A stretch of DNA of 55,200 nt, filler included, from Heptranchias perlo (lineage: Eukaryota): the NCBI RefSeq assembly GCF_035084215.1. It is 2 parts of 2 records of this genome, joined end to end, with 100 filler letters (N's around TTAATTAATTAA, not from the genome) between each part and the next. Parts side by side here need not be neighbours in the genome. Positions count along the whole stretch, not along the records: positions 1 to 28,137 come from NW_027139821.1; 1 more part is not named here. One strand, 5' to 3'. The notes under the pieces are model-generated. The model was not told where the DNA came from. It saw only the letters and a list, made by a program, of their open reading frames with translations, and searched no databases. Shown piece after piece: positions 1-43,728 of the stretch. Positions within the stretch are counted from its first letter, which is position 1, and every line of letters starts with the position of its first letter. Both the position numbers and the translations under genes were made by a program.

Positions 1-592
1 CACCGACTCTCAGTCCCCCCCTCACTCACCGACTCTCAGTCCCCCCTCACTCACCGACTCTCACTCCCCCCCCACTCACCGACTCTCACTCCCCCCCTCA
101 CTCATCGACTCTCACTCCCCCCCTCACTGATCGACTCTCACTCCCCCCTCACTCACCGACTCTCGCTCCCCCCCTCACTCATCGACTCTCACTCCCCCCC
201 TCACTGATCGACTCTCACTCCCCCCTCACTCACCGACTCTCAGTCCCCCCTCACTCACCGACTCTCACTCCGCCCCCTCACTCACCGACTCTCTCTCCCC
301 CCCTCACTCACCGACTCTCACTCCCCCCTCACTCACCGACACCCACTCCCCCCTCACTCACCGACTCTCACTCCCCCCTCACTCACCGACTCTCAGTCCC
401 CCCCTCACTCACCGACTCTCAGTCCCCCCCTCACTCACCGACTCTCAGTCCCCCCTCACTCACCGACTCTCAGTCCCCCCCTCACTCACTGACTCTCACT
501 CCCCCCCCACTCACCGACTCTCACTCCCCCCCTCACTCATCGACTCTCACTCCCCCCCTCACTCATCGACTCTCACTCCCATCCTCACTCAC
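1..592. repeat. 25-26 bp minisatellite at the start of intron 3, about 23 copies visible, continues off-window
   Basis: Unit CACCGACTCTCA(C/G)TCCCCCC(C)TCACT; on the gene's sense strand most units read TCG-GTGAGTGAG. Confidence 0.95.
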
Positions 593-865
593 CGGCCCTC
601 AGTTCCCTCTTTCCGTAGTCGAGGTATTTCCTCAGCCACTCGATGCACTCCTCCTCCAGGTATCCCTTCCACCGCTGGTTCCAGGCCCTGTCCTGGTCCC
701 ACTTGTTCTTGGTGATCTCTCCCCACTGTACCGGTGTTACCCACACCATGTGTTCCAGATCGAAGCTGATGAAATCCTTCCCGTCCCAGCTGTCCTGATA
801 GAACCCTCTCGTGGTCCCATCATTCCCCAGCTCACAGCCGTACATCACCTGGATCGTGTGGATTC
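593..865 (-). CDS. UAA: MHC class I heavy chain, exon 3 (alpha-2 domain, 273 bp)
   Basis: Acceptor GACAG| and donor CCG|GTGAGT. Translates to (G)IHTIQVMYGCELGNDGTTRGFYQDSWDGKDFISFDLEHMVWVTPVQWGEITKNKWDQDRAWNQRWKGYLEEECIEWLRKYLDYGKRELRA, with the C101-C164 disulfide, T143, K146, W147, Y159 and Y171. Confidence 0.97.
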
Positions 866-974
866 CTGTCAATCAAACACAGGGGGTCAGTCAGACCCAC
901 ACCCCCCGGCTCACTGGCAACCCCCCAGGGTCAGGGGTCAGGGGTTAGAGATGGGGAATGCTGCGGAGTGATCA

Positions 975-2165
975 TCGACCCCCAGACCCCGCCTCCGCCC
1001 AGACCCCGACCCCCTGAGCCCACTCCCCCCGGACCCTGACCCACAGAGCCCACACCTCCCGGACCCCGACCCACAGAGCCCGGCCCACCCGGACCCCAAC
1101 CCCCAGAGCCCACACCTCCCGGACCCCGACCCACAGAGCCCGGCCCACCCGGACCACGACCCCCTGAGCCCACTCCCCCCGGACCCCAACCCCCAGAGCC
1201 CACTCCCCCCGGACCCCGGCCCCCAGAGCACACACCTCCCGGACCCTGACCCACAGAGCCCGGCCCACCCGGACCCCGACCCCCAGAACCTGCTCCATCA
1301 GGGCCCCGACCCCCAGAACCCGCACCCCCCTGACACCGACCGCCAGAGCCCACTCCCCCCGGATCCGGACCCCCAGAGCCCGGCCCACCCGGACCCCGAC
1401 CCCCAGAGCCCACTCCCCCTGGATCCGGACCCCCAGAGCCCGGCCCACCCGGACCCCGACCCCCAGAGCCCACTCCCCCCGGATCCCGACCCACAGAGCC
1501 CACTCTCCCCGGATCCCGACCCCCAGAACCCGCTCCGTCAGGACCCCGACCCCCAGAACCCGCTCCCCCCTGACATCGACCCCCAGAGCCCACTCCCCCC
1601 GGATCCCGACCCACAGAGCCCGCTCCCCCCTGACACCGACCGCCAGAGTCCACGCCGCCCGGACCCCAACACTCAGAGCCCACTCCCCCCGGATCCCGAC
1701 CCCCAGAACCCACTCCGCCAGGACCCCGAACCTCAGAGCCCGCTCCCCCCAGACCCCGACACCCAGAGCCCACTCCCCCCAGACCCCGACCCCCAGAACC
1801 CGCTCCGTCAGGACCCCGACCCCCAGAGCCCGCTCCGTCAGGACCCCGACCCCAAAGCCCACTCCCCCCGGATCCCGACCCCCAGAGCCCGCTCCGTCAG
1901 GACCCCGACCCCCAAAGCCCACTCCCCCCAGATCCCGACCCCCACAACCTGCTCCGTCAGGACCCCGATCCCCAGAGTTCGCATCGCCCGGACCCCAACC
2001 CTCAGAGCCGGCTCCCCCGGACGCTGACCCCCAGAACCCGCTCTGTGAGGACCCTGACCCCCAGAGCCCGCTCCCCCGAACCCCGACCACCAGAGCCCGC
2101 TCCCCTCGGACCCCCACCCCTACAGCCCTCTCCCCCGGACCCTGACCCCAAGAGCCCACTCCTCT
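975..2165. repeat. 30-bp GC-rich minisatellite, about 39 copies (intron 2), G-quadruplex-prone on the minus strand
   Basis: Unit approximately GGACCCCGACCCCCAGAGCCCACTCCCCCC; source of the Gly-rich spurious ORFs at 931-2159. Confidence 0.95.
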
Positions 2166-2762
2166 GGACCCTGATCTGCATATTTTAAGGATCCCCCGGA
2201 CCCCGATCTGTGTATTTAAAGGACCCCCCGGACCCCGATCAGTGTATTTAAAGGACCCCCCGGACCCCGATCAGTGTATTTAAAGGACCCCCGGACCCCG
2301 ATCAGTGTATTTAAAGGATCCCCCGGACCCCGATCTGTGTATTTAAAGGACCCCCGGACCCCGATCTGTGTATTTAAAGGACCCCCCGGACCCTGATCTG
2401 TGTATTTAAAGGACCCCCGGACCCTGATCAGTGTATTTAAAGGACCCCCGGACCCCGATCTGTGTATTTAAAGGACCCCCCGGACCCTGATCTGTGTATT
2501 TAAAGGACCCCCGGACCCCGATCTGTGTATTTAAAGGACCCCCGGACCCTGATCAGTGTATTTAAAGGACCCCCGGACCCTGATCAGTGTATTTAAAGGA
2601 CCCCCGGACCCCGATCTGTGTATTTAAAGGACCCCCCGGACCCTGATCTGTGTATTTAAAGGACCCCCGGACCCCGATCTGTGTATTTAAAGGACCCCCG
2701 GACCCCGATCTGTGTATTTAAAGGACCCCCGGACCCCGATCTGTGTATTTGAAGGACCCCCC
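2166..2762. repeat. 31-32 bp minisatellite, about 19 copies
   Basis: Unit GGACCCCGATC(T/A)GTGTATTTAAAGGACCCCC. Confidence 0.95.
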
Positions 2763-2909
2763 GTGCTTCCAGCGAGTGTCCCTCTCGCCTGCTCAGAATA
2801 GCGGGTTAAGATGGTGACCCGTGAGGGCAGTGAGATCAGGGAGGGCGAGTCCCATTGGCCATTTGACCTGCCCGGTTTCCCCAGGGCGGGCAGGTTAGAA
2901 TCGGCCTGA

Positions 2910-3080
2910 GGGACTTTCAGGAGGCCTCGGATAAGGTGCCATGTGAGAGACTCGTGAGAGGTCAGGGTGCGTGGGGTCAGGGGTCAGAGAGCAGAATGGA
3001 TTAAAAGACGGCGACAGAACAGAAAACAGAGGGTCAGAGTTAAGGGAAGTTTCTCAGACTGGCAGAAAGTGGGAAATGGC
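2910..3080 (+). mobile_element. Decayed CR1-type LINE reverse-transcriptase fragment
   Basis: Reads DFQEASDKVP...EWIKRR...RKQRVRVKGSFSDWQKVGNGV, matching the CR1 RT stretch DFQKAFDKVP...RKQRV..G.FS.W..V.SGVPQGSVLGP. Confidence 0.8.
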
Positions 3081-3761
3081 GTTCACCGGGGATCAGTGCC
3101 GGGAACGCTGTGTTCACCGGGGATCAGTGCCGGGAACGCCGTGTTCACCGGGGATCAGTGCCGGGAACGCTGTGTTCACCGGGGATCAGTGCCGGGAACG
3201 CTGTGTTCACCGGGGATCAGTGCCGGGAACGCTGTGCTCACCGGGGAGCAGTGCCGGGAACGCTGTGCTCACCGGGGATCAGTGCCAGGAACGCTGTGCT
3301 CACCGGGGATCAGTGCCGGGAATGCCGTGCTCACCGGGGATCAGTGCCGGGAACGCCGTGTTCACCGGGGATCAGTGCCGGGAATGCCATGTTCACTGGG
3401 GATCAGTGCCGGGAACGCCGTGCTCACCGGGGATCAGTGCCGGGAACGCCGTGTTCACCGGGGATCAGTGCCGGGAACGCCGTGCTCACCGGGGATCAGT
3501 GCCGGGAACGCCGTGCTCACCGGGGATCAGTGCCGGGAACGCCGTGCTCACCGGGGATCAGTGCCAGGAACGCTGTGTTCACCGGGGATCAGTGCCGGGA
3601 ACGCCGTGTTCACCGGGGATCAGTGCCGGGAATGCTGTGCTCACCGGGGATCAGTGCCGGGAACGCTGTGCTCACCGGGGATCAGTGCCGGGAACGCTGT
3701 GCTCACCGGGGATCAGTGCCGGGAACGCTGTGTTCACCGGGGATCAGTGCCGGGAACGCTG
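3081..3761. repeat. 31-bp minisatellite, about 22 copies, derived from the CR1 RT GVPQGSVLGP codons; last unit displaced to 5418-5452
   Basis: Unit GTTCACCGGGGATCAGTGCCGGGAACGC(T/C)GT (VHRGSVPGTL, compare VPQGSVLGPL); continues directly from the RT fragment. Confidence 0.92.
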
Positions 3762-4164
3762 GGTGCTCAATTGGGCCGAGTTGCGCCCGTTGTTTCGGCC
3801 TCTCCAACATCCCAGATGGCGTCTTGGATGCGCATGTACGTTTCCAGCGTGACGTGCCCCAGACGCCATCTTGGTCTAGGAGTTTGCGCCGGCGCAGATA
3901 ACGAACGCTGGAATCATGTAAAGTCGGGAGAAAATGGCTTCAATCAGTGTCCAACGCTGATTTAAAGTGATAGACACCATTTTGGGATTTAACGCTCAAC
4001 TCAACGCACAGTCTTAACCCCGACCATCTGAACGTGTCTTAGAGTGTCTGGAGGACCCCCCACCAGCGCTATTTAAAGGGACCATGCAGGATTTACAGGT
4101 TAGTGGCTGGATTATTGCTTCTGGCTGCCGAGACATTTGTAACTGTTTTTGGAGGTCTCCTAGA

Positions 4165-4447
4165 CTTCAATACTAGGACGTGGGGATATAGCCTAACATT
4201 TAGAGCCAGGACGTGCAGGAGTGAAGTTAGGAAATGCTTCTACACGCAAAGGGTGGGAGATGTTTGGAATGATCTTCTACAGACGGCAGTTGATGCGAGC
4301 TCACTTGTGAATGTTAAATCTGAGATTGATCGATTTCTGTGAACCAAGGGTATTATGGGATATGGGGCTAAGGCGGGTATATGGAGTTAGGTCACAGGTC
4401 CACCATGATCTCACTGAATGGTGGAACAGGCTCGAGGGGCTAAATGC
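4165..4447 (+). mobile_element. CR1 3' end fragment nested in the Harbinger-like element
   Basis: TRTWGYSLTFRARTCRSEVRKCFYTQRVGDVWNDL (CR1 ORF2 C-terminus) followed by the 3'UTR motif GGAACAGGCTCGAGGGGCTAAATG. Confidence 0.8.
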
Positions 4448-4959
4448 CACGGCCACTTGCTGCCTCTTGATATGCGCCAACTTCTCCTGCAAGAAAGCGG
4501 GACGTGTGTCTGGGTGATGTGCCTGTCATGGTTGAATAGCTGCCAGTGTGTGTGGCCTGTGAGTTGTGGGTGGGCAGCTTGAAACAGTGGTAATGTGTGA
4601 GGGTGAGAGGAAGCATCTGATGGGAAGAGTTGAGTACTGATGGAAAGAGTTTGTTGGTATGTGGGTGATGGGGGTGTCGTGTGTGGAGCAGTTGGTTGGA
4701 GACACCACTTGACAGTTGACCTCACTCACCTTGACCACTCATGTCAAAGCATTGAACTTCTTCCTGCACTGCATCCATGTTCATGATGCTGTGCTCCTGG
4801 CATTGACTTCGTCCCCCGCTGCCTCCCACTGTCTTTTGAGTATATGTCTGGAGGGCCTCTTTCCCTCCCCCGCGGATATAGGATGTCCCTCCTTCTGTCC
4901 ACCTCTTGCACCAAGGTCTCTCGTGCATCAGCAGAGAACCTTGGTGCACGCACTCTCAC
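4448..4959 (-). pseudogene. Harbinger Myb/SANT-like (trihelix) DNA-binding protein pseudogene, 2 exon remnants
   Basis: RAPRFSADARETLVQEVDRRRDILYP, a frameshift, then KRPSRHILKRQWEAAGDEVNARSTAS*TWMQCRKKFNALT*VVK; donor AAG|GTGAGT (exon ends 4730); acceptor TTGCAG| (exon starts 4486) followed by EKLAHIKRQQV. The two TGA stops are plausibly from CGA (CpG decay). Confidence 0.8.
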
Positions 4960-5683
4960 AGGCCTGGTACCAACTCAGATCGGCTGATTGGTGAGGTCTG
5001 GTGTGCAGATTGGAGGATGTGGGATTTAGTAGTGCGCAACCTTTATTCAAAGTTTTAACATAACTCATCATTGTGTAAACATAGGGATGGGACCTGCATC
5101 TGTGTTTTATGTGTGCGATGTCTGATCTCCGTTCAGACTCCGTGCAGACTGTTATTTTCAGCAAGTAACAGGTACCAGCTCCCTTTAAGAGATTTCGAAG
5201 AAACATCCTCCCTTTAAGAGATGGCGCTCCCCCTGGTGGTGGAAGGTGTGAATTGCATTGATTCCAGGTGCGAGGCCTGGGATGGAACGCTGATTGCAGG
5301 AAAGTGCTCCGGTGGGTCCGAACTCACGTCCTGCCTGCGCCGGGGTCATTGGACACGGGGTAATCGCCCATCACGCTGCCCGCGCCCAAAAACGGCCCCG
5401 ATCGAACATTTCCCCCACTGTGTTCACCGGGGATCAGTGCCGGGAACGCTGTTGATGGAGAGAGTTTCGGGGTGGGGCGGGGGACTGCCCCTTTAAACTG
5501 ATTAAATGTCGGCCGACTGTGGGGGCGGGGTCAGAATCCGAGCGCTGTCGAGGAGCCAATCGGTGAGCGCGGGACAACCGGCCGGTGCAAGGACGCTCCC
5601 GATTGGCCGCTCCCCCGCGGGGGGTGGGAGCGACCCCGGACCCCGCCCCCCCCCCCGGGCCCCGGATGAGGCCGAGGACTCAC

Positions 5684-5944
5684 CGCCCGATTGGTTGGTC
5701 CGGGACAGGGCGATCGGAATGTTGGCCTTTCCCCACTGCTCCGCGCTCTGTGCATTCCGTGTGTTCCGTTCCCAGTACTCGGGCCCCTCACGCTCCTCCA
5801 TCCAGCGCTGCCGCGGGATCATCGTCCTCCGCTCGCTGTTATATTCAACAAACTGGGCCTCGTCCACATAACCGACAACAACAAACTCCGGAAAACCAGG
5901 GATCGGGGTCATTGAGGTAAAGAAATACCGGAGAGAGTGAGAGC
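5684..5944 (-). CDS. UAA: MHC class I heavy chain, exon 2 (alpha-1 domain, 261 bp)
   Basis: Acceptor TTTCAG| and donor GCG|GTGAGT. Translates to GSHSLRYFFTSMTPIPGFPEFVVVGYVDEAQFVEYNSERRTMIPRQRWMEEREGPEYWERNTRNAQSAEQWGKANIPIALSRTNQSG, with Y7, Y59, R84 and the N86-Q-S glycosylation site (HLA numbering by eye). Motifs MIPRQRW, EGPEYWER, WGKANI and RTNQ recall shark UAA. Confidence 0.97.
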
Positions 5945-5952
5945 CTGAAACA

Positions 5953-8130
5953 CAGAGAGAGAGAGGTCAGGGCATGAACCCCAAAACACCAACCCCAGAG
6001 AGAGAGAGATCAGGGCATGAACCCCAAAACACCAACCCCAGAGAGAGAGAGAGATCAGGGCATGAACCCCAAAACACCAACCCCAGAGAGAGAGAGAGAG
6101 ATCAGGGCATGAACCCCAAAACACCAACCACAGAGAGAGAGAGATCAGGGCATGAACCCCAAAACACCAACCCCAGAGAGAGAGATCCGGGCATGAACCC
6201 CAAAACACCAACCCCAGAGAGAGAGAGATCAGGGCATGAACCCCAAAACACCAACCCCAGAGAGAGAGAGATCAGGGCATGAACCCCAAAACACCAACCC
6301 CAGAGAGAGAGATCCGGGCATGAACCCCAAAACACCAACCCCAGAGAGAGATCAGGGCATGAACCCCAAAACACCAACCCCAGAGAGAGAGATCAGGGCA
6401 TGAACCCCAAAACACCAACCCCAGAGAGAGAGAGAGAGATCAGGGCATGAACCCCAAAACACCAACCCCAGAGAGAGAGATCCGGGCATGAACCCCAAAA
6501 CACCAACCCCAGAGAGAGATCAGGGCATGAACCCCAAAACACCAACCCCAGAGAGAGAGATCAGGGCATGAACCCCAAAACACCAACCCCAGAGAGAGAG
6601 AGATCAGGGCATGAACCCCAAAACACCAACCCCAGAGAGAGAGAGAGGTCAGGGCATGAACCCCAAAACACCAACCCCAGAGAGAGAGATCAGGGCATGA
6701 ACCCCAAAACACCAACCCCAGAGAGAGAGAGATCAGAGCATGAACCCCAAAACACCAACCCCAGAGAGAGAGAGATCAGGGCATGAACCCCAAAACACCA
6801 ACCCCAGAGAGAGAGAGATCAGAGCATGAACCCCAAAACACCAACCCCAGAGAGAGAGATCAGGGCATGAACCCCAAAACACCAACCCCAGAGAGAGAGA
6901 GATCAGAGCATGAACCCCAAAACACCAACCCCAGAGAGAGAGAGAGATCAGGGCATGAACCCCAAAACACCAACCCCAGAGAGAGAGAGATCAGGGCATG
7001 AACCCCAAAACACCAACCCCAGAGAGAGAGAGAGATCAGGGCATGAACCCCAAAACACCAACCCCAGAGAGAGATCAGGGCATGAACCCCAAAACACCAA
7101 CCCCAGAGAGAGAGAGATCAGGGCATGAACCCCAAAACACCAACCCCAGAGAGAGAGAGATCAGGGCATGAACCCCAAAACACCAACCCCAGAGAGAGAG
7201 AGGTCAGGGCATGAACCCCAAAACACCAACCCCAGAGAGTGAGAGAGATCAGGGCATGAACCCCAAAACACCAACCCCAGAGAGAGAGAGAGATCAGGGC
7301 ATGAACCCCAAAACACCAACCCCAGAGAGAGAGAGATCAGGGCATGAACCCCAAAACACCAACCCCAGAGAGAGAGAGGTCAGGGCATGAACCCCAAAAC
7401 ACCAACCCCAGAGAGTGAGAGAGATCAGGGCATGAACCCCAAAACACCAACCCCAGAGAGAGAGAGATCAGGGCATGAACCCCAAAACACCAACCCCAGA
7501 GAGAGAGAGATCAGGGCATGAACCCCAAAACACCAACCCCAGAGAGTGAGAGAGATCAGGGCATGAACCCCAAAACACCAACCCCAGAGAGAGAGAGATC
7601 AGGGCATGAACCCCAAAACACCAACCCCAGAGAGAGAGAGATCAGGGCATGAACCCCAAAACACCAACCCCAGAGAGAGAGAGAGATCAGGGCATGAACC
7701 CCAAAACACCAACCCCAGAGAGAGAGATCAGGGCATGAACCCCAAAACACCAACCCCAGAGAGAGAGATCAGGGAATGAACCCCAAAACACCAACCCCAG
7801 AGAGAGAGAGATCAGGGCATGAACCCCAAAACACCAACCCCAGAGAGAGAGAGATCAGGGCATGAACCCCAAAACACCAACCCCAGAGAGAGAGAGAGAT
7901 CAGGGCATGAACCCCAAAACACCAACCCCAGAGAGAGAGAGATCAGGGCATGAACCCCAAAACACCAACCCCAGAGAGAGAGAGAGATCAGGGCATGAAC
8001 CCCAAAACACCAACCCCAGAGAGAGAGAGATCAGGGCATGAACCCCAAAACACCAACCCCAGAGAGAGAGAGAGATCAGGGCATGAACCCCAAAACACCA
8101 ACCCCAGAGAGACAGAGAGATCAGGGCATG
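5953..8130. repeat. About 41-bp minisatellite, roughly 50 copies with variable (GA)n, abutting the exon 2 acceptor
   Basis: Plus-strand unit (GA)nTCAGGGCATGAACCCCAAAACACCAACCCCA; sense-strand unit ends CCCTGAT(CT)n. Confidence 0.96.
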
Positions 8131-8183
8131 GAGTCCATGTAATAAAACACAACAGAGTCCCTGTAAATAATCCCCAACACAAC

Positions 8184-8667
8184 ACAGACTGAGGGAGAGG
8201 GGCCTGGGGTAACACACCCACTGACAGACTGAGGGAGAGGGGCCTGGGGTAACACACCCACTGACAGACTGAGGGAGAGGGGCCTGGGGTAACACACCCA
8301 CTGACAGACTGAGGGAGAGGGGCCTGGGGTAACACACCCCCTGACAGACTGAGGGAGAGGGGCCTGGGGTAACACACCCACTGACAGACTGAGGGAGAGG
8401 GGCCTGGGGTAACACACCCACTGACAGACTGAGGGAGAGGGGCCTGGGGTAACACACCCCCTGACAGACTGAGGGAGAGGGGCCTGGGGTAACACACCCC
8501 CTGACAGACTGAGGGAGAGGGGCCTGGGGTAACACACCCCCTGAAAGACTGTGGGAGAGGGGCCTGGGGTAACACACACACTGACAGACTGAGGGAGAGG
8601 GGCCTGGGGTAACACACCCCCTGACAGACTGAGGGAGAGGGGCCTGGGGTAACACACCCCCTGACAG
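8184..8667. repeat. 40-bp minisatellite, about 12 copies (intron 1)
   Basis: Unit CTGACAGACTGAGGGAGAGGGGCCTGGGGTAACACACCC(A/C). Confidence 0.96.
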
Positions 8668-8859
8668 GGGTACATATAGTTGGTTATATTTGATTCAGGG
8701 ACTAATTATCTTAAAATAACACGTACAATACACGGGTAAAAAGCAATCCATCAACTTTGAATCTGTAAATTGATCCAATAGGGTGAAATTTCTAAGCTGA
8801 GTGTAAGAGGAACATTGATGGGGATTCAGTTGACACTGGAGATAAATAAATATAGACTA

Positions 8860-11390
8860 GAAATGTCAGCATAGTCAGTGTGTTGGGACTGCAGTATGTG
8901 GGAGTTTGTGGACAGTGAGACTGTCCCGGATTGTCACACTACAGGAAATGTCTCTGCCTTGACTCACTCCGGCTCAGAGTCGTTGAGCTGGAGTGCGAGT
9001 TCGAGACTCTCTGACACATGAGGGAGGGGGAGGAATATCGGGATAGTTTACTCCAGAACTCAGTCCCACCAAGTCGAGAGGTACAGGTACAGGAAGAGGA
9101 GAGTGTGACTGACAGTCAGCAGGGTTGGGGAATCTAGTGGAGGCAGGGAAGGAGGGGCCGCAGAGTCTGGTCCTGTCCAACAGGTACGATGTACTTGCTA
9201 CCTGTGGGGGTAAGGAGAAAGGCTGTGGGAGGGACAGTCACAATGTTCACCAAGGCACCATGGAGCAGGAGGCAGTCCAAGGGGGGAGGAGCAGAACAGA
9301 AAGGCTGGAGTTCGAGGGAGTCAGTTTAACGTTAGTTGTGGGGAAGCAACTCGAATCTGTCATTCGGGACAGAGTGAGTGAGCACTTGAACAAGTATGAG
9401 CTGATCGGAGAGAGCCATGGATTTGTTAAGGGTGAATTGTCTGAATAATCTAGTTGAATATTTTGAGGAGCTCACTCATAATGTCGATAAGGGAGTGTCG
9501 ATGGATGTTATTTCGATGGACTTCCAGAGGCATTCGATGAGGTTCCACACAAGAGACTGTTTGCAAAAATGAGAGCGCATGGAATTGGAGGCATTCTTTT
9601 AGGAGCATAGGAACAGGAGGAGGCCATTCAGCCCCTCGAGCCTGTTCCATCATTCAATCATGGCTGATCTGTATCTTAACTCCATCTCCCGCCTTGGTTC
9701 CGTAACCTTTAATACCCGTGTCCAACAAAAATCGATCAATCTCAGTTTTGAAATTTTCAATTGACCCCCAGTCTCAGCAGCTTTTTGGGGGAGAGAGTTC
9801 CAGATTTCCACTCCCCTTTGTGTGAAGAAATGCTTCCTGACATCACCCTGAACGGCCGAGCACTAATTTTAAGGTTATGCCCCCTTGTTCTGGACTCTCC
9901 CACCAGAGGAAATAGTTTCTCTCTATCTACCCTATCAAATCCTTTAATCATTTTAAACACCTCAATTAGATCACCTCTTAATCTTCTAAACTCGAGGGAA
10001 TACAAGCCGAGTCTGTACAACCTGTCCTCGTAATTTAACCCTTTAAACCCCGGGATCATTCTGGTGAATCTGGGCTGCACCCCCTCCAAGGCCAATCTAT
10101 CCTTCCTGAGGTGCGGTGCCCAGAACTGAACACAGTCTCCAGATGTGGTCTGACCAGAGCTCTGTACAGCTGGAACATAACTTCCTCCCCTTTGTATTCC
10201 AGTCCCCGAGATAAAGACCAACGTTCCATTCGCCTTTTTAATTATTTTCTGTACCTGTCTACGACCTTTTAGTGATTTCTGTACTTAGACCCCTAAATCT
10301 CTCTGCTCACCCAGTTCCCAGCTTCTCACCATTTAGACCTGGGTTGAACATTGGCTGGGAGGTTGGAGACAGAGAGTGGGGAGAAAGGGGATGTCCTCTG
10401 ATTGGCAGGATGTGACCAGTGGTGAACCCCAGGGATCTGTACTAGTCATGACTTGGATGAAGAATAGAGAGCTGGATATCCAAGTTTACTGACGACACTA
10501 AATTAGGAGGGACAGGAAATAGTGTAGACGGGAGCAGGGAGTTGTGAAGGGACAGAGACAGATTAAGTGAGTGGGCAAAACTGTGGCAAATGGAGTTCAA
10601 TGTGGGAAAGTGTGAGGTCATCGACTTTAGACCGAAGAAAGATAAATCAGAGTATTTTCTACACGGTGAGAAACTAGGAACTGGAGAGGAACAGAGAGAT
10701 TTGGGAGTCCAAGTACAGAAATCATTAAAAGCCAGTGGAGAGATACAAAAAGGATTGGGAAAGGCTAATGGAACGTTGGCCTTTATCTCGGGGGCTGGAA
10801 TACAAAGGGGAGGAAGTTATGTTCCAGCTGTGCAGAGCTCTGGTCAGACCACATCTGGAGACTGTGTTCAGTTCTGGGCACCGCACCTCAGGAAGGATAG
10901 ATTGGCCTTGGAGGGGGTGCAGCCCAGATTCACCAGAATGATCCCGGGGCTGAAAGGGTTAAATTACGAGGACAGGTTGTACAGACTCGGCTTGTATTCC
11001 CTCGAGTTTAGAAGATTGAGGGGTGATCTGATCGAGGGTGTTTAAAATGTTAAAAGGATTTGATAGGGTAGATACGGAGAAACTACTTCGTCCAGTCGGG
11101 GAGACAAGAACAAGAGGACGGAATCTTCAAATTCGAGCCAGGCCGTTCAGGGGTGAAACCAGGAAGCATTTCTTCACACAAAGGGTGGTGGGAATCTGGA
11201 ACTCTCTCCCCCAAAAGGCTGAGCATTCTGGGGGTTCATTGGAGCTTTCAAAACTGAGATTGATCGATTTTTGTTGGGTCAGGACATCAAGGGATATGGA
11301 GCAAAGGGGGAAAATGGAGATGAGGTTCAGATCAGCCTTGATCCAATTGAATGGCGGAACAGGCTCGAGGGGCTGAATGGCCTGCGATGT
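8860..11390 (+). mobile_element. Internally deleted, decayed CR1 LINE (ORF1 remnant, ORF2 RT and 3'UTR), interrupted by an antisense CR1
   Basis: ORF1 Cys-rich/zipper remnant VCWDCSMWEFVD...LRLRVVELECEFETL and LSNRYDVL; RT pieces VSLTLVVGKQLESVIRD, MDFQR..., SKFTDDTKLGG, WQMEFNVGKCEV and HFFTQRVVGIWNSLP; 3'UTR ends near 11385. Confidence 0.88.
9601..10335 (-). mobile_element. 5'-truncated CR1 LINE inserted antisense into the preceding CR1
   Basis: CVQFWAPHLRKD...LYSLEFRRLRGDLIEVFK...SRTRGHNLKI. The host RT sequence stops at AHGIGG (about 9590) and resumes at WVEHWL (about 10340). Confidence 0.9.
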
Positions 11391-11485
11391 TCCTCTCTCC
11401 ACTCCCACTCTCCAGCCCTGTGCCCCTGTCCGTCTTTCTCTCCCTCTCCATCTCCCCGCTCCCCAACCCCGCACCCCGGTCTCTC

Positions 11486-12124
11486 AATGCCCCAATACCC
11501 AGCCTGGCACTGAGCCCATCTCAGACCCCATTACCCACTGACCGAGGGTGAATGCCCCAATACCCAGCCTGGCACTGAGCCCCTCTCAGACCCCCATTAC
11601 CCACTGACCGAGGGTTAATGCCCCAATACCCAGCCTGGCACTGAGCCCCTCTCAGACCCCATTACCCACTGACCGAGGGTTAATGCCCCAATACCCAGCC
11701 TGGCACTGAGTCCCTCTCAGACCCCATTACCCACTGACCGAGGGTTAATGCCCCAATACCCAGCCTGGCACTGAGCCCCTCTCAGACCCCATTACTCACT
11801 GACCGAGGGTTAATGTCCCAATACCCAGCCTGGCACTGAGCCCCTCTCAGACCCCATTACTCACTGACCGAGGGTTAATGCCCCAATACCCAGCCTGGCA
11901 CTGAGCCCCTCTCAGACCCCATTACTCACTGACCGAGGGTTAATGTCCCAATACCCAGCCTGGCACTGAGCCCCTCTCAGACCCCATTACTCACTGACCG
12001 AGGGTTAATGTCCCAATACCCAGCCTGGCACTGAGCCCCTCTCAGACCCCATTACCCACTGACCGAGGGTTAATGCCCCAATACCCAGCCTGGCACTGAG
12101 CCCCTCTCAGACCCCATTACTCAC
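11486..12124. repeat. 65-bp minisatellite, about 10 copies, beginning exactly at the exon 1 donor
   Basis: Plus-strand unit TAATGCCCCAATACCCAGCCTGGCACTGAGCCCCTCTCAGACCCCATTAC(T/C)CACTGACCGAGGGT. Confidence 0.96.
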
Positions 12125-12173
12125 CTGCAGAGACCCCTCCACACAGAATGACCAGAACGATCAGTCCAATCAT
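12125..12173 (-). CDS. UAA: MHC class I heavy chain, exon 1 (signal peptide MIGLIVLVILCGGVSA|G)
   Basis: ATG at 12173-12171 in context ACAATG; 16 mostly hydrophobic codons ending VSA plus 1 nt; donor CAG|GTGAGT (12124-12119); phase 1 joins exon 2 to give the mature N-terminus GSHSLRY. Not in the ORF track (too short). Confidence 0.93.
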
Positions 12174-15736: not shown

Positions 15737-16370
15737 TGAGGGTCACATTCACTAAACTTTCACCTTTCAAATAAAATATCCACTTTTACTCACAGTGCTG
15801 AACCTCTCTGATTTCAATCTGTTCCTTTCCTGTTACTTTCAGTTCAATCTCCCATTTTTAATCAATATTTATTTTCTGCCACTTTTGCTCCCCTTCTCCT
15901 GTTGTGGCATCAAACGTTGCACGAAAGCACCTGGAGCAAGGGGTCATGAGAGAGGGGAATCAGCAATCGGAACGGTCTCAGATTGCCCGGTACTGGGAGA
16001 TGGGCCTGGAATCACTGCTCCATTTACTCTACACCTTCCTCTCTCCAACTCTCAGCTTTGATGGATTTGTGGTGCACAATGTCTGACCAGGCAGCACAAT
16101 TCAGGATTTGCCTTACTCTCCCCAGATTTAGAAACCCCTCATCGAGAGAACAAATAAAGGGTTAATTATACTGGGGATTAAAAACGTGTTTAATCCAGAG
16201 AGGTGAAAAGCTGCTGTAAAAATGTCAGGTTTCACTGACTGATGTCCTTGTCCATCAATAAATGTCTTTCTCAGTTGGCCCCAATGCAGTGTCAATCTGT
16301 CACTTCTCAAAGACAAGGAGGGTCTGATGGGACACGGGATTGGAGCAACAGCTAAAGCAAAAGAGAAAGG

Positions 16371-17492
16371 GCTCGTAAGAACGGGATATGACGCTCGACT
16401 CGTCGATCGACAGTTCCGACGGGCCACAGCGAAAAATCGCATAGACCTCCTCAGAAGACTAACACGGGACGCAACCAGCAGAGTACGCTTCGTCGTCCAG
16501 TACTTCCCCGGAGCGGAGAAACTACGCCATGTTCTCCGCGGCCTTCAACATGTCATCGATGACGACGAACACCTCGCTAAGGCCATCCCCACACCTCCAC
16601 TACTCGCCTTCAAACAGCCACCCAACCTCAAACAGACCATCGTTCGCAGCAAATTACCCAGCTTTCAGGAGAACAGCGTCCACGACACCACACAACCCTG
16701 CCACGGCAACCTCTGCAAGACATGCCAGATCATCGACACAGATACCACCATCACACGAGAGGACACCACCCACCAGGTACATGGTTCATACTCCTGTGAC
16801 TCGGCCAACGTTGTCCACCTCATACGTTGCAGGAAAGGATGCCCCGGAGCATGGTACATTGGCGAGACCATGCAGACGCTGCGACAACGGATGAACGGAC
16901 ACCGCGCAACAATCGCCAGACAGGAGGGTTCCCTCCCAGTCGGGGAACACTTCAGCAGTCAAAGACATTCAGCCACCGATCTTTGGGTAAGCGTTCTCCA
17001 AGGCGGCCTTCGAGACACACGACAACGCAAAATCGTCAAGCAGAAATTGATAGCCAAGTTCCGCACCCATGAGGATGGCCTCAACCGGGATCTTGGGTTC
17101 ATGTCACGCTACACGTAACCCCACCAGCGAATAAAAGTTATCTGTTTTTAATACAATGGGTCATTCTCTGTCTTTTCCTTCCGGATGTTTCTCCCTCTCT
17201 CTCTCTGTCTTTTGTTCTGGCCGTTTGTATATTCGGTGGTCCTGTAGGTAACATCTCTCTGTCTGAACACTTTGATTGCCTTGACAACGGGCAGTTGGAA
17301 AGATTATCTGTAATCACCAGGTCTTGTTCTCTGACTATAAATGCGAAACGTTCAAGGAATCCCACACTCACCTGACGAAGGAGATAATCTCCGAAAGCTT
17401 GTGATTTTCAAATAAAACTGTTGGACTATAACCTGGTGTTGTAAGATTCCTTACATTTGTCCACCCCAGTCCATCACCGGCATCTCCACATC
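16371..17492 (+). mobile_element. 5'-truncated Penelope-like retroelement: GIY-YIG endonuclease ORF and pseudo-LTR
   Basis: Open frame to 17118 with CHGNLCKTC, SCDSANVVHLIRCRKGCPGAWYIGETMQTLRQRMNGHR, VGEHF and GLNRD; downstream TATAAA (17337), hammerhead and AATAAA (17411). Confidence 0.92.
17368..17404 (+). ncRNA. Minimal type I hammerhead ribozyme in the Penelope pLTR
   Basis: Stem I TCAC/GTGA; core CTGACGA; stem II GGAGA-TAA-TCTCC; GAAA; palindromic AAGCTT in place of stem III. Confidence 0.82.
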
Positions 17493-28137: not shown

Positions 28138-28237
28138 NNNNNNNNNNNNNNNNNNNNNNNNNNNNNNNNNNNNNNNNNNNNTTAATTAATTAANNNNNNN
28201 NNNNNNNNNNNNNNNNNNNNNNNNNNNNNNNNNNNNN
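28138..28237. other. Artificial contig-joining spacer: N44-TTAATTAATTAA-N44
   Basis: Exactly 100 nt and symmetric; the 12-mer gives TAA stops in all six frames. Confidence 0.93.
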
Positions 28238-29206
28238 GTGGAACAGAGGCAGTGGAGAAGGAGGGGTTAGGCCGGTGTGGGAGGAGCGGAGGGGGCATGT
28301 GGGGGCATGAGATTGTGGGGAGATTGCGGAGGTGGGAAGGGAGGAGGACAGAGAAGGCTTTAAAGGTGAAGAAATGAACCTTCGAGTCAATTCTGTGGAG
28401 TTGGAGGAGCCGATGGGGTTTTGGCACGAACAAGGGATGGGGGTGAGAGGGAGGAGGCAGAACACATCGATCAGAACACAATCTCTGAAAGGTTCACACG
28501 TGTCTGTGGTCCAGTAATATTGAGGTCGATTTTCACCTTTACCACCTGGGTGTTCAGCATCAACTGGGCGGGGCAGAGAGAGAGCAAAATCTGGAGAGGA
28601 GGATCACACGGCAGGAACAGAACCTGGAGCATTTTCCATCTATTGAAATCCCCCCCCGCCCGGCCAGATTTCCGTTCTGAACTCAGCCCAGGTGATGCCT
28701 AATGTCTCGGAGCTAAAACCACAATCGAGCCCGTTATGTGAAAGGAGATAATGGAATCCTCCTTCAAACACCATCCGAGGGAAAGGGTTTTCCTTCCCTC
28801 CCCTTCCATTCCCTTTCCCTTCCTTTCCGATTCCTTCCCTTCCCTTTCCCTTCCTTTTCTTTCCTGTCCCTTCCCATTCCCTCCATCCCCTTCCCTTCCA
28901 CTGCTTCCGAGGTACAGCTCTAATACCTCACCCCCCAAAATGGCTGTTATTTGTCTGTGAGCCTTGACAATAATTGAAGAAAAGTGCCTCGATCAAACAC
29001 TTTGCAAACAGATCAGTGACACAACCTCTCCCAGTGACCCCTCCCCAGAACAGGGATCATCCTTAACCTGAATCGCTCACACACCCAAGGCAATGAGATA
29101 GTCCAAACCCAGGGGCCGCTCGAGAGCATCTTGTGATGGAAGATGGGTTCAATCTCGGTGTCCCCTCAAATACTGTCCACAGATAGAAGCTGTTTGATTT
29201 GCTTAC

Positions 29207-29258
29207 CAGAGGAGACGTTGGGCACACAGTAAACGTTCAGTAAAGTAACAAGCAGCAT
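29207..29258 (-). CDS. Candidate orphan signal-peptide exon MLLVTLLNVYCVPNVSS|G (MHC/Ig-superfamily-style leader)
   Basis: ATG with A at -3 (ACAACATG); 17 codons plus 1 nt; hydrophobic core and small residues at -3/-1 (V-S-S); strong phase-1 donor CTG|GTAAGC; CCAAT about 105 bp upstream (29365-29361). No downstream exon is seen before the gap. Confidence 0.55.
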
Positions 29259-29629
29259 GTTGTAAAGTCACCCGAGGCGCTGATTAACCAGGAGAGAAGC
29301 TGCTGTAACAGGAACTTAATCTCTTGCGCTTTTCAACACCACTCGAGTCTGAAGCTACTTATTGGTGCTTGTGTGCAGCAGGTCTGATAACCAGATCCAG
29401 TTAGAATGGAGGGACTTGTTCTGGTCACTGGGTCCCAGGGAGTGGAGTCTGAGCCTGCATCTTACAGCAGGGGTTCACACTGAGGCCCAGCCCAGTATTA
29501 ACACCGAACCATCGCATCTGTTTACATCCCCCTGTATTTCAATGGTCTATTCCAGACTCCCACTTTCACCCCTCCCATTCTCTTCCCAATGCACCGACTC
29601 TCACTGGCAATGGGACCACAAAGAAAAGA

Positions 29630-35897: not shown

Positions 35898-36451
35898 CTG
35901 TGTCCCTCGGCGATCAGCGCCCCTGGACTGGGGGGGAAGCAGGTTGTGTGGGGAGAGGGGGCACATTAGGAAATTACACATTCCAGTCCATGATTTTATG
36001 ATCGTTAATTGAAATAGATGGAAAGTCACGGGCTGTTGGGGGACAATTCTCTGACACTCAGAAGGGGAAAGACTCCTTGCTGAGCTGTGAGTTTCAATCA
36101 CCCACTGATTCCTCTCCAATCAGCCCTGTGGGTCGCGCATTTACTTTGTGGGAACTTGTTGATTTTCCTGAAACTAAAAGTATTTTACAGTTTTCTCTGT
36201 AAAAAGAATCTCTGCGTGGAATGGAATTCGAGCTGCTGAAGAACAACCTGGGCCAAGTGACAATTCCTCATGGAAGCCCATCAGTCTCAAATGTAACGGG
36301 GAATCGATGGGGAACTGGACACTTCCCGGATAATAATGTCTCTTGATCGGGAACTGGATTCTCTTTTCTCTCTCATCCAATTCCACTTGGATATTCACGG
36401 AAGATCGAGGCATGAAAGCGATCCAGCTTCACAGCGCATCCCGGCTGATCA

Positions 36452-39400
36452 ATGGTGGGATTCCCCCTGTCTGTCTGGTGTTTTGGTCAGTCTGGGAGCG
36501 GTGATTGATGGTGAGATTCCCCCCTGTCTGTCTGGTGTTTTGGTCAGTCTGGGACAGGTGATTGATGGTGAGATACCCCCCTGTCTGTCTGGTGTTTTGG
36601 TCAGTCTGGGAGCGGTGATTGATGGTGAGATTCCCCCCTGTCTGTCTGGTGTTTTGGTCAGTCTGGGAGCGGTGACTGATGGTGAGATTCCCCCCTGTCT
36701 GTCTGGTGTTTTGGTCAGTCTGGGAGCGGTGACTGATGGTGAGATTCCCCCCTGTCTGTCTGGTGTTTTGGTCAGTCTGGGAGCGGTGATTGATGGTGAG
36801 ATTCCCCCCTGTCTGTCTGGTGTTTTGGTCAGTCTGGGAGCGGTGATTGATGGTGAGATTCCCCCCTGTCTGTCTGGTGTTTTGGTCAGTCTGGGAGCGG
36901 TGATTGATGGTGAGATTCCCCCCTGTCTGTCTGGTGTTTTGGTCAGTCTGGGAGCGGTGATTGATGGTGAGATTCCCCTCTGTCTGTCTGGTGTTTTGGT
37001 CAGTCTGGGAGCGGTCACTGATGGTGAGATTCCCCCCTGTCTGTCTGGTGTTTTGGTCAGTCTGGGAGCGGTGATTGATGGTGAGATTCCCCTCTGTCTG
37101 TCTGGTGTTTTGGTCAGTCTGGGAGCGGTGACTGATGGTGAGATTCCCCCCTGTCTGTCTGGTGTTTTGGTCAGTCTGGGAGCGGTGATTGATGGTGAGA
37201 TTCCCCCCTGTCTGTCTGGTGTTTTGGTCAGTCTGGGAGCGGTGACTGATGGTGAGATTCCCCCCTGTCTGTCTGGTGTTTTGGTCAGTCTGGGAGCGGT
37301 GATTAATGGAGAGATTCCCCTCTGTCTGTCTGGTGTTTTGGTCAGTCTGGGAGCGGTGATTCATGGTGAGATTCCCCTCTGTCTGTCTGGTGTTTTGGTC
37401 AGTCTGGGAGCGGTGATTGATTGTGAGATTCCCCTCTGTCTGTCTGGTGTTTTGGTCAGTCTGGGAGCGGTGATTGATGGTGAGATTCCCCCCTGTCTGT
37501 CTGGTGTTTTGGTCAGTCTGGGAGCGGTGACTGATGGTGGGATTCCCCCCTGTCTGTCTGGTGTTTTGCTCAGTCTGGGAGCGGTGATTAATGGTGAGAT
37601 TCCCCCCTGTCTGTCTGGTGTTTTGGTCAGTCTGGGAGCGGTGATTGATGGTGGGATTCTCCCCTGTCTGTCTGGTGTTTTGGTCAGTCTGGGAGCGGTG
37701 ATTCATGGTGAGATTCCCCTCTGTCTGTCTGGTGTTTTGGTCAGTCTGGGAGCGGTGATTGATGGTGGGATTCTCCCCTGTCTGTCTGGTGTTTTGGTCA
37801 GTCTGGGAGCGGTGACTGATGGTGGGATTCCCCCCTGTCTGTCTGGTGTTTTGGTCAGTCTGGGAGCGGTGATTGATGGTGAGATTCCCCTCTGTCTGTC
37901 TGGTGTTTTGGTCAGTCTGGGAGCGGTGATTGATGGTGGGATTCCCCCCTGTCTGTCTGGTGTTTTGGTCAGTCTGGGAGCGGTGACTGATGGTGAGATT
38001 CCCCCCTGTCTGTCTGGTGTTTTTGTCAGTCTGGGAGCGGTGACTGATGGTGAGATTCCCCCCTGTCTGTCTGGTGTTTTGGTCAGTCTGGGAGCGGTGA
38101 TTAATGGAGAGATTCCCCTCTGTCTGTCTGGTGTTTTGGTCAGTCTGGGAGCGGTGATTCATGGTGAGATTCCCCTCTGTCTGTCTGGTGTTTTGGTCAG
38201 TCTGGGAGCGGTGATTGATTGTGAGATTCCCCTCTGTCTGTCTGGTGTTTTGGTCAGTCTGGGAGCGGTGATTGATGGTGAGATTCCCCCCTGTCTGTCT
38301 GGTGTTTTGGTCAGTCTGGGAGCGGTGACTGATGGTGGGATTCCCCCCTGTCTGTCTGGTGTTTTGCTCAGTCTGGGAGCGGTGATTAATGGTGAGATTC
38401 CCCCCTGTCTGTCTGGTGTTTTGGTCAGTCTGGGAGCGGTGATTGATGGTGGGATTCTCCCCTGTCTGTCTGGTGTTTTGGTCAGTCTGGGAGCGGTGAT
38501 TCATGGTGAGATTCCCCTCTGTCTGTCTGGTGTTTTGGTCAGTCTGGGAGCGGTGATTGATGGTGGGATTCTCCCCTGTCTGTCTGGTGTTTTGGTCAGT
38601 CTGGGAGCGGTGATTGATGGTGAGATTCCCCCCTGTCTGTCTGGTGTTTTGGTCAGTCTGGGAGCGGTGATTGATGGTGGGATTCTCCCCTGTCTGTCTG
38701 GTGTTTTGGTCAGTCTGGGAGCGGTGATTGATGGTGGGATTCCCCCCTGTCTGGTGTTTTGGTCAGTCTGGGAGCGGTGTCTGATGGTGAGATTCCCCCC
38801 CTGTCTGTCTGGTGTTTTGGTCAGTCTGGGAGCGGTGACTGATGGTGGGATTCCCCTCTGTCTGTCTGGTGTTTTGGTCAGTCTGGGAGCGGTCACTGAT
38901 GGTGAGATTCCCCTCTGTCTGTCTGGTGTTTTGGTCAGTCTGGGAGCGGTCACTGATGGTGAGATTCCCCCCTGTCTGTCTGGTGTTTTGGTCAGTCTGG
39001 GAGCGGTGACTGATGGTGGGATTCCCCTCTGTCTGTCTGGTGTTTTGTTCAGTCTGGGAGCGGTCACTGATGGTGAGATTCCCCTCTGTCTGTCTGGTGT
39101 TTTGGTCAGTCTGGGAGCGGTGACTGATGGTGAGATCCCCCTCTGTCTGTCTGGTGTTTTGGTCAGTCTGGGAGCGGTGACTGATGGTGAGATTCCCCTC
39201 TGTCTGTCTGGTGTTTTGGTCAGTCTGGGAGCGGTGACTGATGGTGAGATTCCCCTCTGTCTGTCTGGTGTTTTGGTCAGTCTGGGAGCGGTGACTGATG
39301 GTGAGATTCCCCTCTGTCTGTCTGGTGTTTTGGTCAGTCTGGGAGCGGTCACTGATGATGAGATTCCCCTCTGTCTGTCTGGTGTTTTGGTCAGTCTGGG

Positions 39401-42400
39401 AGCGGTCACTGATGGTGAGATTCCCCCTCTGTCTGTCTGGTGTTTTGGTCAGTCTGGGAGCGGTCACTGATGGTGAGATTCCCCCCCGTGTCTGTCTGGT
39501 GTTTTGGTCAGTCTGGGAGTGGTGATTGATGGTGAGATTCCCCTCTATCTGTCTGGTGTTTTGGTCAGTCTGGGAGCGGTGATTGATGGTGAGATTCCCC
39601 CCTGTCTGTCTGGTGTTTTGGTCAGTCTGGGAGCGGTGATTGATGGTGGGATTCCCCCCTGTCTGTCTGGTGTTTTGGTCAGTCTGGGAGCGGTGACTAA
39701 TGGTGAGATTCCCCTCTGTCTGTCTGGTGTTTTGGTCAGTCTGGGAGCGGTCACTGATGGTGAGATTCCCCTCTGTCTGTCTGGTGTTTTGCTCAGTCTG
39801 GGAGCGGTGATTGATGGTGGGATTCCCCCCTGTCTGGCGTTTTGGTCAGTCTGGGAGCGGTGTCTGATGGTGAGATTCCCCCCCTGTCTGTCTGGTGTTT
39901 TGGTCAGTCTGGGAGCGGTCACTGATGGTGAGATTCCCCTCTGTCTGTCTGGTGTTTTGGTCAGTCTGGGAGCGGTGACTGATGGTGAGATTCCCCCTCT
40001 GTCTGTCTGGTGTTTTGGTCAGTCTGGGAGCGGTGACTGATGGTGAGATTCCCCTCTGTCTGTCTGGTGTTTTGGTCAGTCTGGGAGCGGTGACTGATGG
40101 TGAGATTCCCCTCTGTCTGTCTGGTGTTTTGGTCAGTCTGGGAGCGGTGACTGATGGTGAGATTCCCCTCTGTCTGTCTGGTGTTTTGGTCAGTCTGGGA
40201 GCGGTGATTGATGGTGAGATTCCCCCCTGTCTGTCTGGTGTTTTGGTCAGTCTGGGAGCGGTGATTGATGGTGGGATTCCCCCCTGTCTGTCTGGTGTTT
40301 TGGTCAGTCTGGGAGCGGTGACTAATGGTGAGATTCCCCTCTGTCTGTCTGGTGTTTTGGTCAGTCTGGGAGCGGTCACTGATCGTGAGATTCCCCTCTG
40401 TCTGTCTGGTGTTTTGGTCAGTCTGGGAGCGGTCACTGATGGTGAGATTCCCCCTCTGTCTGTCTGGTGTTTTGGTCAGTCTGGGAGCGGTCACTGATGG
40501 TGAGATTCCCCCTTGTCTGTCTGGTGTTTTGGTCAGTCTGGGAGCGGTGATTGATGGTGAGATTCCCCTCTGTCTGTCTGGTGTTTTGGTCAGTCTGGGA
40601 GCGGTGATTGATGGTGAGTTTCCCCTCTGTCTGTCTGGTGTTTTGGTCAGTCTGGGAGTGGTGATTGATGGTGAGATTCCGCCCTGTCTGTCTGATGTTT
40701 TGGTCAGTCTGGGAGCGGTGATTGATGGTGGGATTCCCCCCTGTCTGTCTGGTGTTTTGGTCAGTCTGGGAGCGGTGATTGATGGTGAGATTCCTCCATG
40801 TCTGTCTGGTGTTTTGGTCAGTCTGGGAGCGGTGATTGATGGTGAGATTCCCCCCTGTCTGTCTGGTGTTTTGGTCAGTCTGGGAGCGGTGATTGATGGT
40901 GAGATTCCCCCATGTCTGTCTGGTGTTTTGGTCAGTCTGGGAGCGGTGACTGATGGTGAGATTCCCCTCTGTCTGTCTGGTGTTTTGGTCAGTCTGGGAG
41001 CGGTGATTGATGGTGAGATTCCCCCCTGTCTGTCTGGTGTTTTGGTCAGTCTGGGAGCGGTGATTGATGGTGAGATTCCCCCATGTCTGTCTGGTGTTTT
41101 GGTCAGTCTGGGAGCGGTGATTGATGGTGGGATTCCCCTCTGTCTGTCTGGTGTTTTGGTCAGTCTGGGAGCGGTGATTGATGGTGAGATTCCCCCCTGT
41201 CTGTCTGGTGTTTTGGTCAGTCTGGGAGCGGTGATTGATGGTGAGATTCCCCCATGTCTGTCTGGTGTTTTGGTCAGTCTGGGAGCGGTGATTGATGGTG
41301 AGATTCCCCCCTGTCTGTCTGGTGTTTTGGTCAGTCTGGGAGCGGGGATTGATGGTGAGATTCCCCCATGTCTGTCTGGTGTTTTGGTCAGTCTGGGAGC
41401 GGTGACTGATGGTGAGATTCCCCTCTGTCTGTCTGGTGTTTTGGTCAGTCTGGGAGCGGTGATTGATGGTGAGATTCCCCCCTGTCTGTCTGGTGTTTTG
41501 GTCAGTCTGGGAGCGGTGATTGATGGTGGGATTCCCCCATGTCTGTCTGGTGTTTTGGTCAGTCTGGGAGCGGTGATTGATGGTGGGATTCCCCTCTGTC
41601 TGTCTGGTGTTTTGGTCAGTCTGGGAGCGGTGATTGATGGTGAGATTCCCCCATGTCTGTCTGGTGTTTTGGTCAGTCTGGGAGCGGTGATTGATGGTGA
41701 GATTCCCCTCTGTCTGTCTGGTGTTTTGGTCAGTCTGGGAGCGGTCACTGATGGTGAGATTCCCCTCTGTCTGTCTGGTGTTTTGGTCAGTCTGGGAGCG
41801 GTGATTGAAGGTGAGATTCCCCCTCTGTCTGTCTGGTGTTTTGGTCAGTCTGGGAGCGATCACTGATGGTGAGATTCCCCCCTGTCTGTCTGGTGTTTTG
41901 GTCAGTCTGGGAGCGGTGACTGATGGTGAGATTCCCCCCTGTCTGTCTGGTGTTTTGGTCAGTCTGGGAGCGGTGATTGATGGTGAGATTCCCCCCTGTC
42001 TGTCTGCTGTTTTGGTCAGTCTGGGAGCGGTGACTGATGGTGAGATTCCCCCCTGTCTGTCTGGTGTTTTGGTCAGTCTGGGAGCGGTGATTGATGGTGA
42101 GATTCCCCCCTGTCTGTCTGGTTTTTTGGTCAGTCTGGGAGCGGTCACTGATGGTGGGATTCCCCCCCTGTCTGTCTGGTGTTTTGGTCAGTCTGGGAGC
42201 GGTGATTGATGGTGAGATTCCCCCCTGTCTGTCTGGTGTTTTGGTCAGTCTGGGAGCGGTGATTGATGGTGAGATTCCCCCCTGTCTGTCTGGTGTTTTG
42301 GTCAGTCTGGGAGCGGTCACTGATGGTGAGATTCCCCTCTGTCTGTCTGGTGTTTTGGTCAGTCTGGGAGCGGTGATTGATGGTGAGATTCCCCCCTGTC

Positions 42401-43572: not shown

Positions 43573-43728
43573 AGCAATGGCGGTGCTCATTACCCACAAG
43601 GCCGCGCGGCTCGGAAAGCGGTCCGCCCGCGGCCCCGGTGCACTCTGGGGAGACGGTCAGAGGCTCCGTCACGGAGAGAGAGAGAAGGAGAAAGAGAGAG
43701 AGGAGAGAGAGAGAGAGGAGGAGGACAG
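43573..43728 (+). promoter_or_regulatory. CpG-rich unique island: candidate promoter and first exon of an unidentified plus-strand gene
   Basis: GCAGCAATGGCGG (strong Kozak context, YY1-like); two oppositely oriented ZNF143/Staf-like sites (TACCCACAAGGCCGCGCG at 43591-43608; CCCCAGAGTGCACCGG on minus at 43650-43635); donor CAG|GTGAG at 43728/43729. Confidence 0.5.

Follow-up and report, generated by a model that had tools for sequence, protein, structure and literature searches.

Why do long tandem arrays lie where exons begin and end in a shark immune gene, and do they serve any purpose there? The question is raised by the first three exons of a major histocompatibility complex (MHC) class I heavy chain gene of Heptranchias perlo (assembly GCF_035084215.1), which occupy positions 1-12173, minus strand, of a 55,200-nucleotide (nt) stretch of DNA. 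This stretch, called the window below, joins two parts of the genome, of which the first (positions 1 to 28,137) comes from record NW_027139821.1. One splice junction of each of the three exons is abutted by a tandem array whose units carry splice signals. The pattern is real, exceeds uniform chance and belongs to a known kind, found here in a new setting. The arrays are probably minisatellites that were born locally and are tolerated as a harmless expansion of the introns, with no dedicated system of decoy sites.

The class I gene and its junction arrays

The three exons are open and all are in phase 1. The coding part of exon 1 (12173-12125, minus strand, 49 nt) encodes the same leader peptide as the database protein P0052 and is followed by the donor CAG|GTGAGT at 12124. 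Exon 2 (5944-5684, minus strand) encodes the alpha-1 domain (Pfam MHC_I, 1.8e-24; PDB 6lup, 3.2e-33). Exon 3 (865-593, minus strand, 273 nt) encodes the alpha-2 domain (MHC_I, 1.5e-27; 6lup, 1.3e-34) and is followed by the donor CCG|GTGAGT at 592. The structure 6lup is the best match for both domains. The motifs SLRY, PEYW, SRTN, EITKNKW, KGYL and RKYL are all found in them, and the residues that anchor the peptide ends (Y7, Y59, R84, T143, K146, W147, Y159 and Y171) are present. Both domains are identical to those of P0052, whose source label is Heptranchias perlo. The exons of P0052, which is a database gene model, are joined exactly at the junctions inferred for the gene in the window.

The closest database relatives of the gene are class I proteins of cartilaginous fish, and several close class I paralogues are present in the same species. 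Judged by its sequence, the gene appears to be class Ia-like, and may be either the single bona fide class Ia locus (UAA), which is linked to TAP/PSMB, or an Ia-like paralogue; extra Ia-like class I genes have been described (PMC10751288). Exons 4 onward fall outside the window, so the claim of the first-pass annotation that each class I exon has one splice site amplified into an array covers three exons only. For these three it holds, and four further arrays in the same introns lie away from splice sites.

Seven arrays were called in the visible introns by Tandem Repeats Finder (TRF), and the three that abut splice sites are those named in the first-pass annotation: at the exon 1 donor, at the branch point and pyrimidine tract of exon 2, and at the exon 3 donor. 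They differ in what they copy. The first unit of the 65-bp array in intron 1 (11486-12124, minus strand, 9.8 copies) begins exactly at intron position +1. Downstream of it, nine copies have TCA|GTGAGT (four) or TCA|GTGGGT (five), compared with CAG|GTGAGT at the true site. The copies hold the intronic half of the donor, with GT retained and the exonic AG missing in all nine. The end of exon 1 matches the unit at 4 of 12 positions (P 0.38), so that there is no significant copy of the exon.

The array at exon 2 (5953-8130, minus strand, about 51 copies) ends 8 nt before the acceptor. Its presence was confirmed, while its unit, earlier given as 41 bp, has a consensus of 43 bp and a range of 39-47 bp, 41 bp being one variant. 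The unit repeats a branch-like CTGAY motif and a CT tract. There is not a single AG on the sense strand of its 2,178 nt, and the closest upstream AG is 2,214 nt away. There are suggestive signs, and no more, that this unit came from the start of exon 2 (its first 44-80 nt). None of 338 background windows scores as well, and the shuffle P is at most 0.001. However, an unrelated window of exon 3 scored equally against one target, and one of 24 control pairings (the 40-bp unit described below against the start of exon 2) also gave 0 of 300.

The array at exon 3 (1-592, minus strand; 1-601 according to TRF) has about 23 copies of a 26-bp unit, begins at the donor and is cut by the start of the window. 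The unit consists of the last 15 or so nucleotides of exon 3 followed by about the first 11 of intron 3. It matches the exon end at 12 of 15 positions (shuffle P 0.00085; a match this good is reached by 0 of 1,236 windows of background sequence and by 4 of 500 dinucleotide shuffles), showing that it is a true junction-spanning duplication. This is the only array of the three that clearly copies exon sequence. GT is kept in 16 of its 22 downstream copies, and the two copies closest to the exon lack it.

Neither the exon 2 donor nor the exon 3 acceptor has been amplified, as had also been noted from the sequence at the outset. The first 240 nt of intron 2 (5444-5683) are CpG-rich and contain two CCAAT and three GC boxes, where 0.69 and 0.05 are expected. 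The lack of an array at the exon 2 donor could be due to constraint on this stretch, if it is regulatory.

Origin of the arrays and fate of their splice signals

Three of the five visible splice sites have an array edge within 10 nt, which has a P of 2e-6 if seven edges are placed uniformly. The anticipated excess over uniform expectation is thus present, for this one gene. With the arrays collapsed and self-matching DNA related to long interspersed nuclear elements (LINEs) removed, the P becomes 4.5e-5. It is 0.008 or 0.048 if the ancestral introns are taken as 300 or 150 nt long, these lengths being assumed and not measured. The test was made post hoc. The junction association is more than a mere by-product of array density.

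Tandem arrays make up 60% of the whole window. They occupy 53% of intron 1, take up 51% of intron 2 and fill the visible part of intron 3, and they never cover an exon. In such a region short stretches at the intron ends may have been tandemly duplicated and later expanded, by slippage or unequal exchange. A bias towards junctions would follow if the G-rich GTGAG starts of introns are good seeds, if the ancestral introns were short, and if arrays could spread only up to the exon. GTGAG is found in the units of seven of the 12 arrays of the window (1.4 expected). It is also common away from the class I splice sites, in five of nine arrays (0.95 expected, P 6e-4), suggesting that the motif may itself favor repeats. 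Either GTGAG promotes the birth of repeats wherever it occurs, or these other arrays mark unrecognized exons.

The same observations bear on a more active role of the junctions, in which co-transcriptional R-loops, or pausing of the polymerase or the spliceosome at intron ends, would seed arrays throughout the genome beyond what sequence content explains, the arrays again being neutral. The positional P values (2e-6 to 4.5e-5) speak for such seeding, the non-template strand is rich in G in both donor arrays (skew 0.82 and 0.38), and the source sequences of repeats described in chicken sit at exon borders (PMC12954441). However, four of the seven arrays of the gene lie away from junctions, GTGAG arrays occur where no exon is known, and in two of the seven arrays it is C that prevails on the sense strand. 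A canonical G-quadruplex (G4) motif, sought as a common cause, is absent from all three junction arrays. Together with the post hoc nature of a statistic taken from one gene, this makes active seeding rather unlikely.

Whether the copies work as splice sites can be judged from the reading frame. Behind both amplified donors, read-through gives G-E-stop, the stop codon lying at +6 to +8 of the intron. The use of any downstream donor would therefore yield a truncated product, a likely target of nonsense-mediated decay. The copies would also make poor decoys, being weaker than the true site, downstream of it, or without AG. In the human F7 VNTR (variable number of tandem repeats) only the most upstream donor is used, and experiments gave the repeat donors no regulatory role (PMC1557585). 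Two class I models, P0045 and P0015, end in G-E right after alpha-2, as predicted for the stop in intron 3; they are likely to be truncated models. An insert at the alpha-1/alpha-2 junction was seen only in P0041, a skate model, among 51 proteins of up to 420 amino acids, seven longer ones being left out of the comparison.

The idea that the copies are useful banks of binding sites for U1, U2 and U2AF, tuning class I expression through unproductive splicing, exon definition or recursive splicing, fares poorly against these observations. It would account for the near-consensus donor kept in the exon 3 copies, and nearby pseudo-sites are indeed used in IFI6 and CBS (PMC1557585). However, the copies nearest to the exons are inactivated or weaker, the stop codons penalize any use, the F7 experiments argue against regulation, and no alternative model of the gene was present among the database cluster members examined. 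Such a function is very improbable.

At each amplified junction the true splice site either still comes first or is alone in being complete, so the gene likely tolerates its arrays. If they are tolerated minisatellites, intact downstream donors would be kept silent by a preference for the first site, as in human F7, nonsense-mediated decay would remove rare mis-spliced products, and only arrays harmless to splicing would persist.

A further possible role of the arrays is in recombination. Separate trees of the individual domains were built for 27 chondrichthyan proteins, including seven genes of the same species. The trees are incongruent among the seven genes, and the mosaicism suggested by the first-pass annotation is thus visible. 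P0043 shares an alpha-1 clade with the gene in the window (100/99) but belongs, with 54% identity, to the other alpha-3 lineage. In P0010 and P0046 the alpha-1 comes from another lineage (98/93), whereas the alpha-3 is identical to that of the gene. Three ancient pairings of alpha-1 with alpha-3 are found in the species, the alpha-3 domains being identical or nearly so in eight of nine compared. On the strength of this incongruence, exon-scale exchange has probably occurred among these class I genes, although the proteins are database models and could themselves be chimeric.

The arrays might therefore have been retained as blocks of shared homology that promote exchange of exons between class I paralogues or alleles. 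Recombination between alpha-1 and alpha-2 across a long intron 2 is established in trout and zebrafish, where it was ascribed to the length of the intron (PMC6523485). Any long homologous intron would do, however, and splice signals in the unit are unnecessary for this purpose. Much of the class I variation is also patchy within exons. Retention for exchange is thus quite unlikely, and just as unlikely is the combined idea that junctions nucleate minisatellites in the shark MHC, as an ancient form of the stuttering regarded as specific to birds, and that the resulting arrays provide the homology for swaps of the alpha-1, alpha-2 and alpha-3 exons.

The view that the arrays are locally born and tolerated meets several difficulties of its own. 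The three occupied sites are still improbable after collapse of the arrays and removal of LINE DNA, and P rises to between 0.008 and 0.05 only with the short ancestral introns that were assumed, which leaves some probability to a mechanism truly directed at junctions. Two apparent signs of filtering by splicing are weak. The absence of AG from the exon 2 array is shared by 47% of shuffled 43-bp units, and the loss of GT from the two exon 3 copies nearest to the donor is not significant as a trace of selection (P 0.065), adjacent copies not being independent. The silence of the decoys is read from a database gene model. Finally, the introns have retained interspersed repeats, unlike the euchromatin of avian dot chromosomes.

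Other arrays and the right-hand part of the window

Two of the remaining intron arrays carry splice-like motifs and were considered as displaced copies of true sites. The 40-bp array (8184-8667, minus strand, 12 copies) lies 2.2 kb from exon 2 and has, in its sense strand, acceptor-like pyrimidine tracts with CAG. Its derivation from the exon 2 acceptor was rejected, since 49 of 906 background windows and 205 of 300 shuffles score equally. A 31-bp array (3083-3761, minus strand, 22 copies) has CCG|GTGAGC on the sense strand in 11 copies. Its derivation from the exon 2 donor was likewise rejected (its score is equalled in 45 of 1,236 windows of background sequence and in 112 of 500 shuffles), and a higher score came from pairing the unit with exon 3 as a control. 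A single unit of this array is found at 5419-5452, 1.66 kb from the main body, as if it had been split off by an insertion.

The other two arrays lie closer to exon 3. The second 31-bp array (2166-2761, 19 copies, no strand assigned) has no splice signal, and its 10-nt seed motif is also present at 4070. The 30-bp array (976-2162, minus strand, about 40 copies) is G-rich and begins 110 nt before the acceptor of exon 3; its sense strand contains 33 G4-like motifs. Intron 1 also contains remnants of LINE-like interspersed repeats (9319-11383, no strand assigned), of which 2,058 nt are matched elsewhere in the window according to self-BLAST. Some of the matching copies carry RVT_1 matches.

A fourth amplified splice site had been proposed at a candidate donor at 43728. 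This candidate, CAG|GTGAGG at 43728/9, proved to be the first full unit of a 25-bp array (43711-48754, plus strand, about 200 copies), whose unit contains the same motif. The open reading frame (ORF) upstream is 152 nt long and lies in a weakly CpG-rich stretch. It has no Pfam match at an E of 0.001 and no match in Atlas, and none of five candidates is a homologue. The proposal of an amplified coding exon is thus not upheld; a non-coding first exon at this place is possible.

The 25-bp array is preceded by a 57-bp array (36452-43570, 120 copies), whose unit length is a multiple of three. It has long open frames, carries ATG|GTGAGA in 88 units and ends directly before an ATG at 43577, so that it may be coding or act as a promoter. 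Its last unit is interrupted by a 220-nt insert (43293-43512) with a poly(T) end, that is poly(A) on the minus strand, and with 12-nt direct repeats on both sides. The insert looks like a 5'-truncated retroelement. An 84-codon open frame without a Pfam match adjoins the 57-bp array (36177-36428, minus strand).

A candidate exon at 29208-29383 (minus strand) ends in a leader-like peptide and has a phase-1 donor CTG|GTAAGC, with no recognized exon downstream. The CpG-rich open frame of 291 codons at 16243-17115 has no Pfam match; it resembles the 3' end of a Penelope-like element. A Pfam scan for a second gene in the window covered 232 of the 300 listed ORF-sized stretches (113 including the two class I exons and 119 including two array ORFs) and nothing passed the cut-off except RVT_1 and MHC_I, along with an RPE65 score that was inflated by repeats and had no passing stretch. 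The window has assembly gaps and a low-accuracy stretch in a 45-bp array (28139-28238, 48930-49088 and 50048-54300); for the right-hand arrays the copy numbers cannot be relied on.

Comparison with known systems

The arrays had been thought to form an undescribed system, whereas donor repeats of this kind have been reported in human F7 intron 7 (37 bp), CBS intron 13, IFI6 (6-16) intron 2, LMNB2 and PDGF intron 4 (PMC1557585), and exon stuttering is known in birds (PMC12954441). In VNTRs of the F7 type the first unit spans the exon-intron boundary, the donor recurs along the intron and the copy number differs between individuals; the window presents a single haplotype. The 26-bp array of exon 3 is built in the same way and, by its sequence, is a member of this type. 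The 65-bp array begins at +1, so it lacks the boundary-spanning first unit of F7 and CBS and copies the intronic half only. Other differences are that those genes have one array each, whereas three junction arrays are found here in a single gene; that one of them repeats a branch point and pyrimidine tract without AG; and that site use was measured in F7, while here it is predicted from sequence and a gene model.

Hron et al. (2026, PMC12954441) have described stuttering of intron and exon sequences on the dot chromosomes of birds, one feature of which is extensive variation of intron length within a species. In chicken, exon stuttering copies donors or acceptors, and more than 90% of the sources lie within 1 base of an exon border. 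The resemblance to the shark gene is that the units, tens of bases long, were expanded locally and are private to each intron, that the exons are intact, and that some units copy an exon edge together with its donor or acceptor. However, stuttering was reported in birds (and gerbils) and "not found" in other vertebrates. Exon stuttering requires there an exon copy that lies in the adjacent intron, is 20 nt or longer and reaches 42.1 bits or more. The exon copies here are too short and too diverged for this screen; the best one has 23.8 bits, a score that was obtained with -task blastn rather than blastn-short and is only roughly comparable. The repeat-free setting of the dot chromosomes is also missing, as interspersed repeats account for matches over 2,058 nt of intron 1. 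The gene is therefore like the stuttering loci, with repetitive introns, but is not a strict member, because the exon copy falls below the threshold and LINE remnants have been kept.

In chicken, the MHC is carried by chromosome 16. This chromosome is one of the dot chromosomes (PMC12954441), a possible parallel to the shark gene. Simple tandem repeats are enriched on small shark chromosomes (PMC10620051).

De Grassi and Ciccarelli (2009, PMC2812944) found internal tandem repeats where exons meet introns in duplicated human genes. The likeness is in the variable boundary repeats in members of large paralogue families. Those repeats alter splicing or create introns, whereas the model of the shark gene shows no such effect. 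The exon-wise mosaic class I sequences of teleosts (PMC6523485) resemble those of the shark. Their cause was given as intron length and not as arrays of splice signals, and in the shark it is paralogues that form the mosaics, with alpha-3 included. No publication was found on splice-signal arrays in shark MHC introns, although subscription journals and supplements may hold one, or on a VNTR of a branch point and pyrimidine tract, in a search that mostly excluded subscription journals. A search for related loci in metagenome contigs gave 33 pattern matches, none of which was confirmed.

Should junction-directed seeding or array-mediated exon exchange prove true, splicing would be linked to the birth of repeats and to the diversification of the MHC. 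The arrays also make shark class I introns hard to assemble and genotype. With amplified donors, an amplified branch point and junctions lacking arrays all within one gene, the locus is a compact natural test case. It extends both the splice-site minisatellites and the intron stuttering of the bird type to an MHC gene of a shark.

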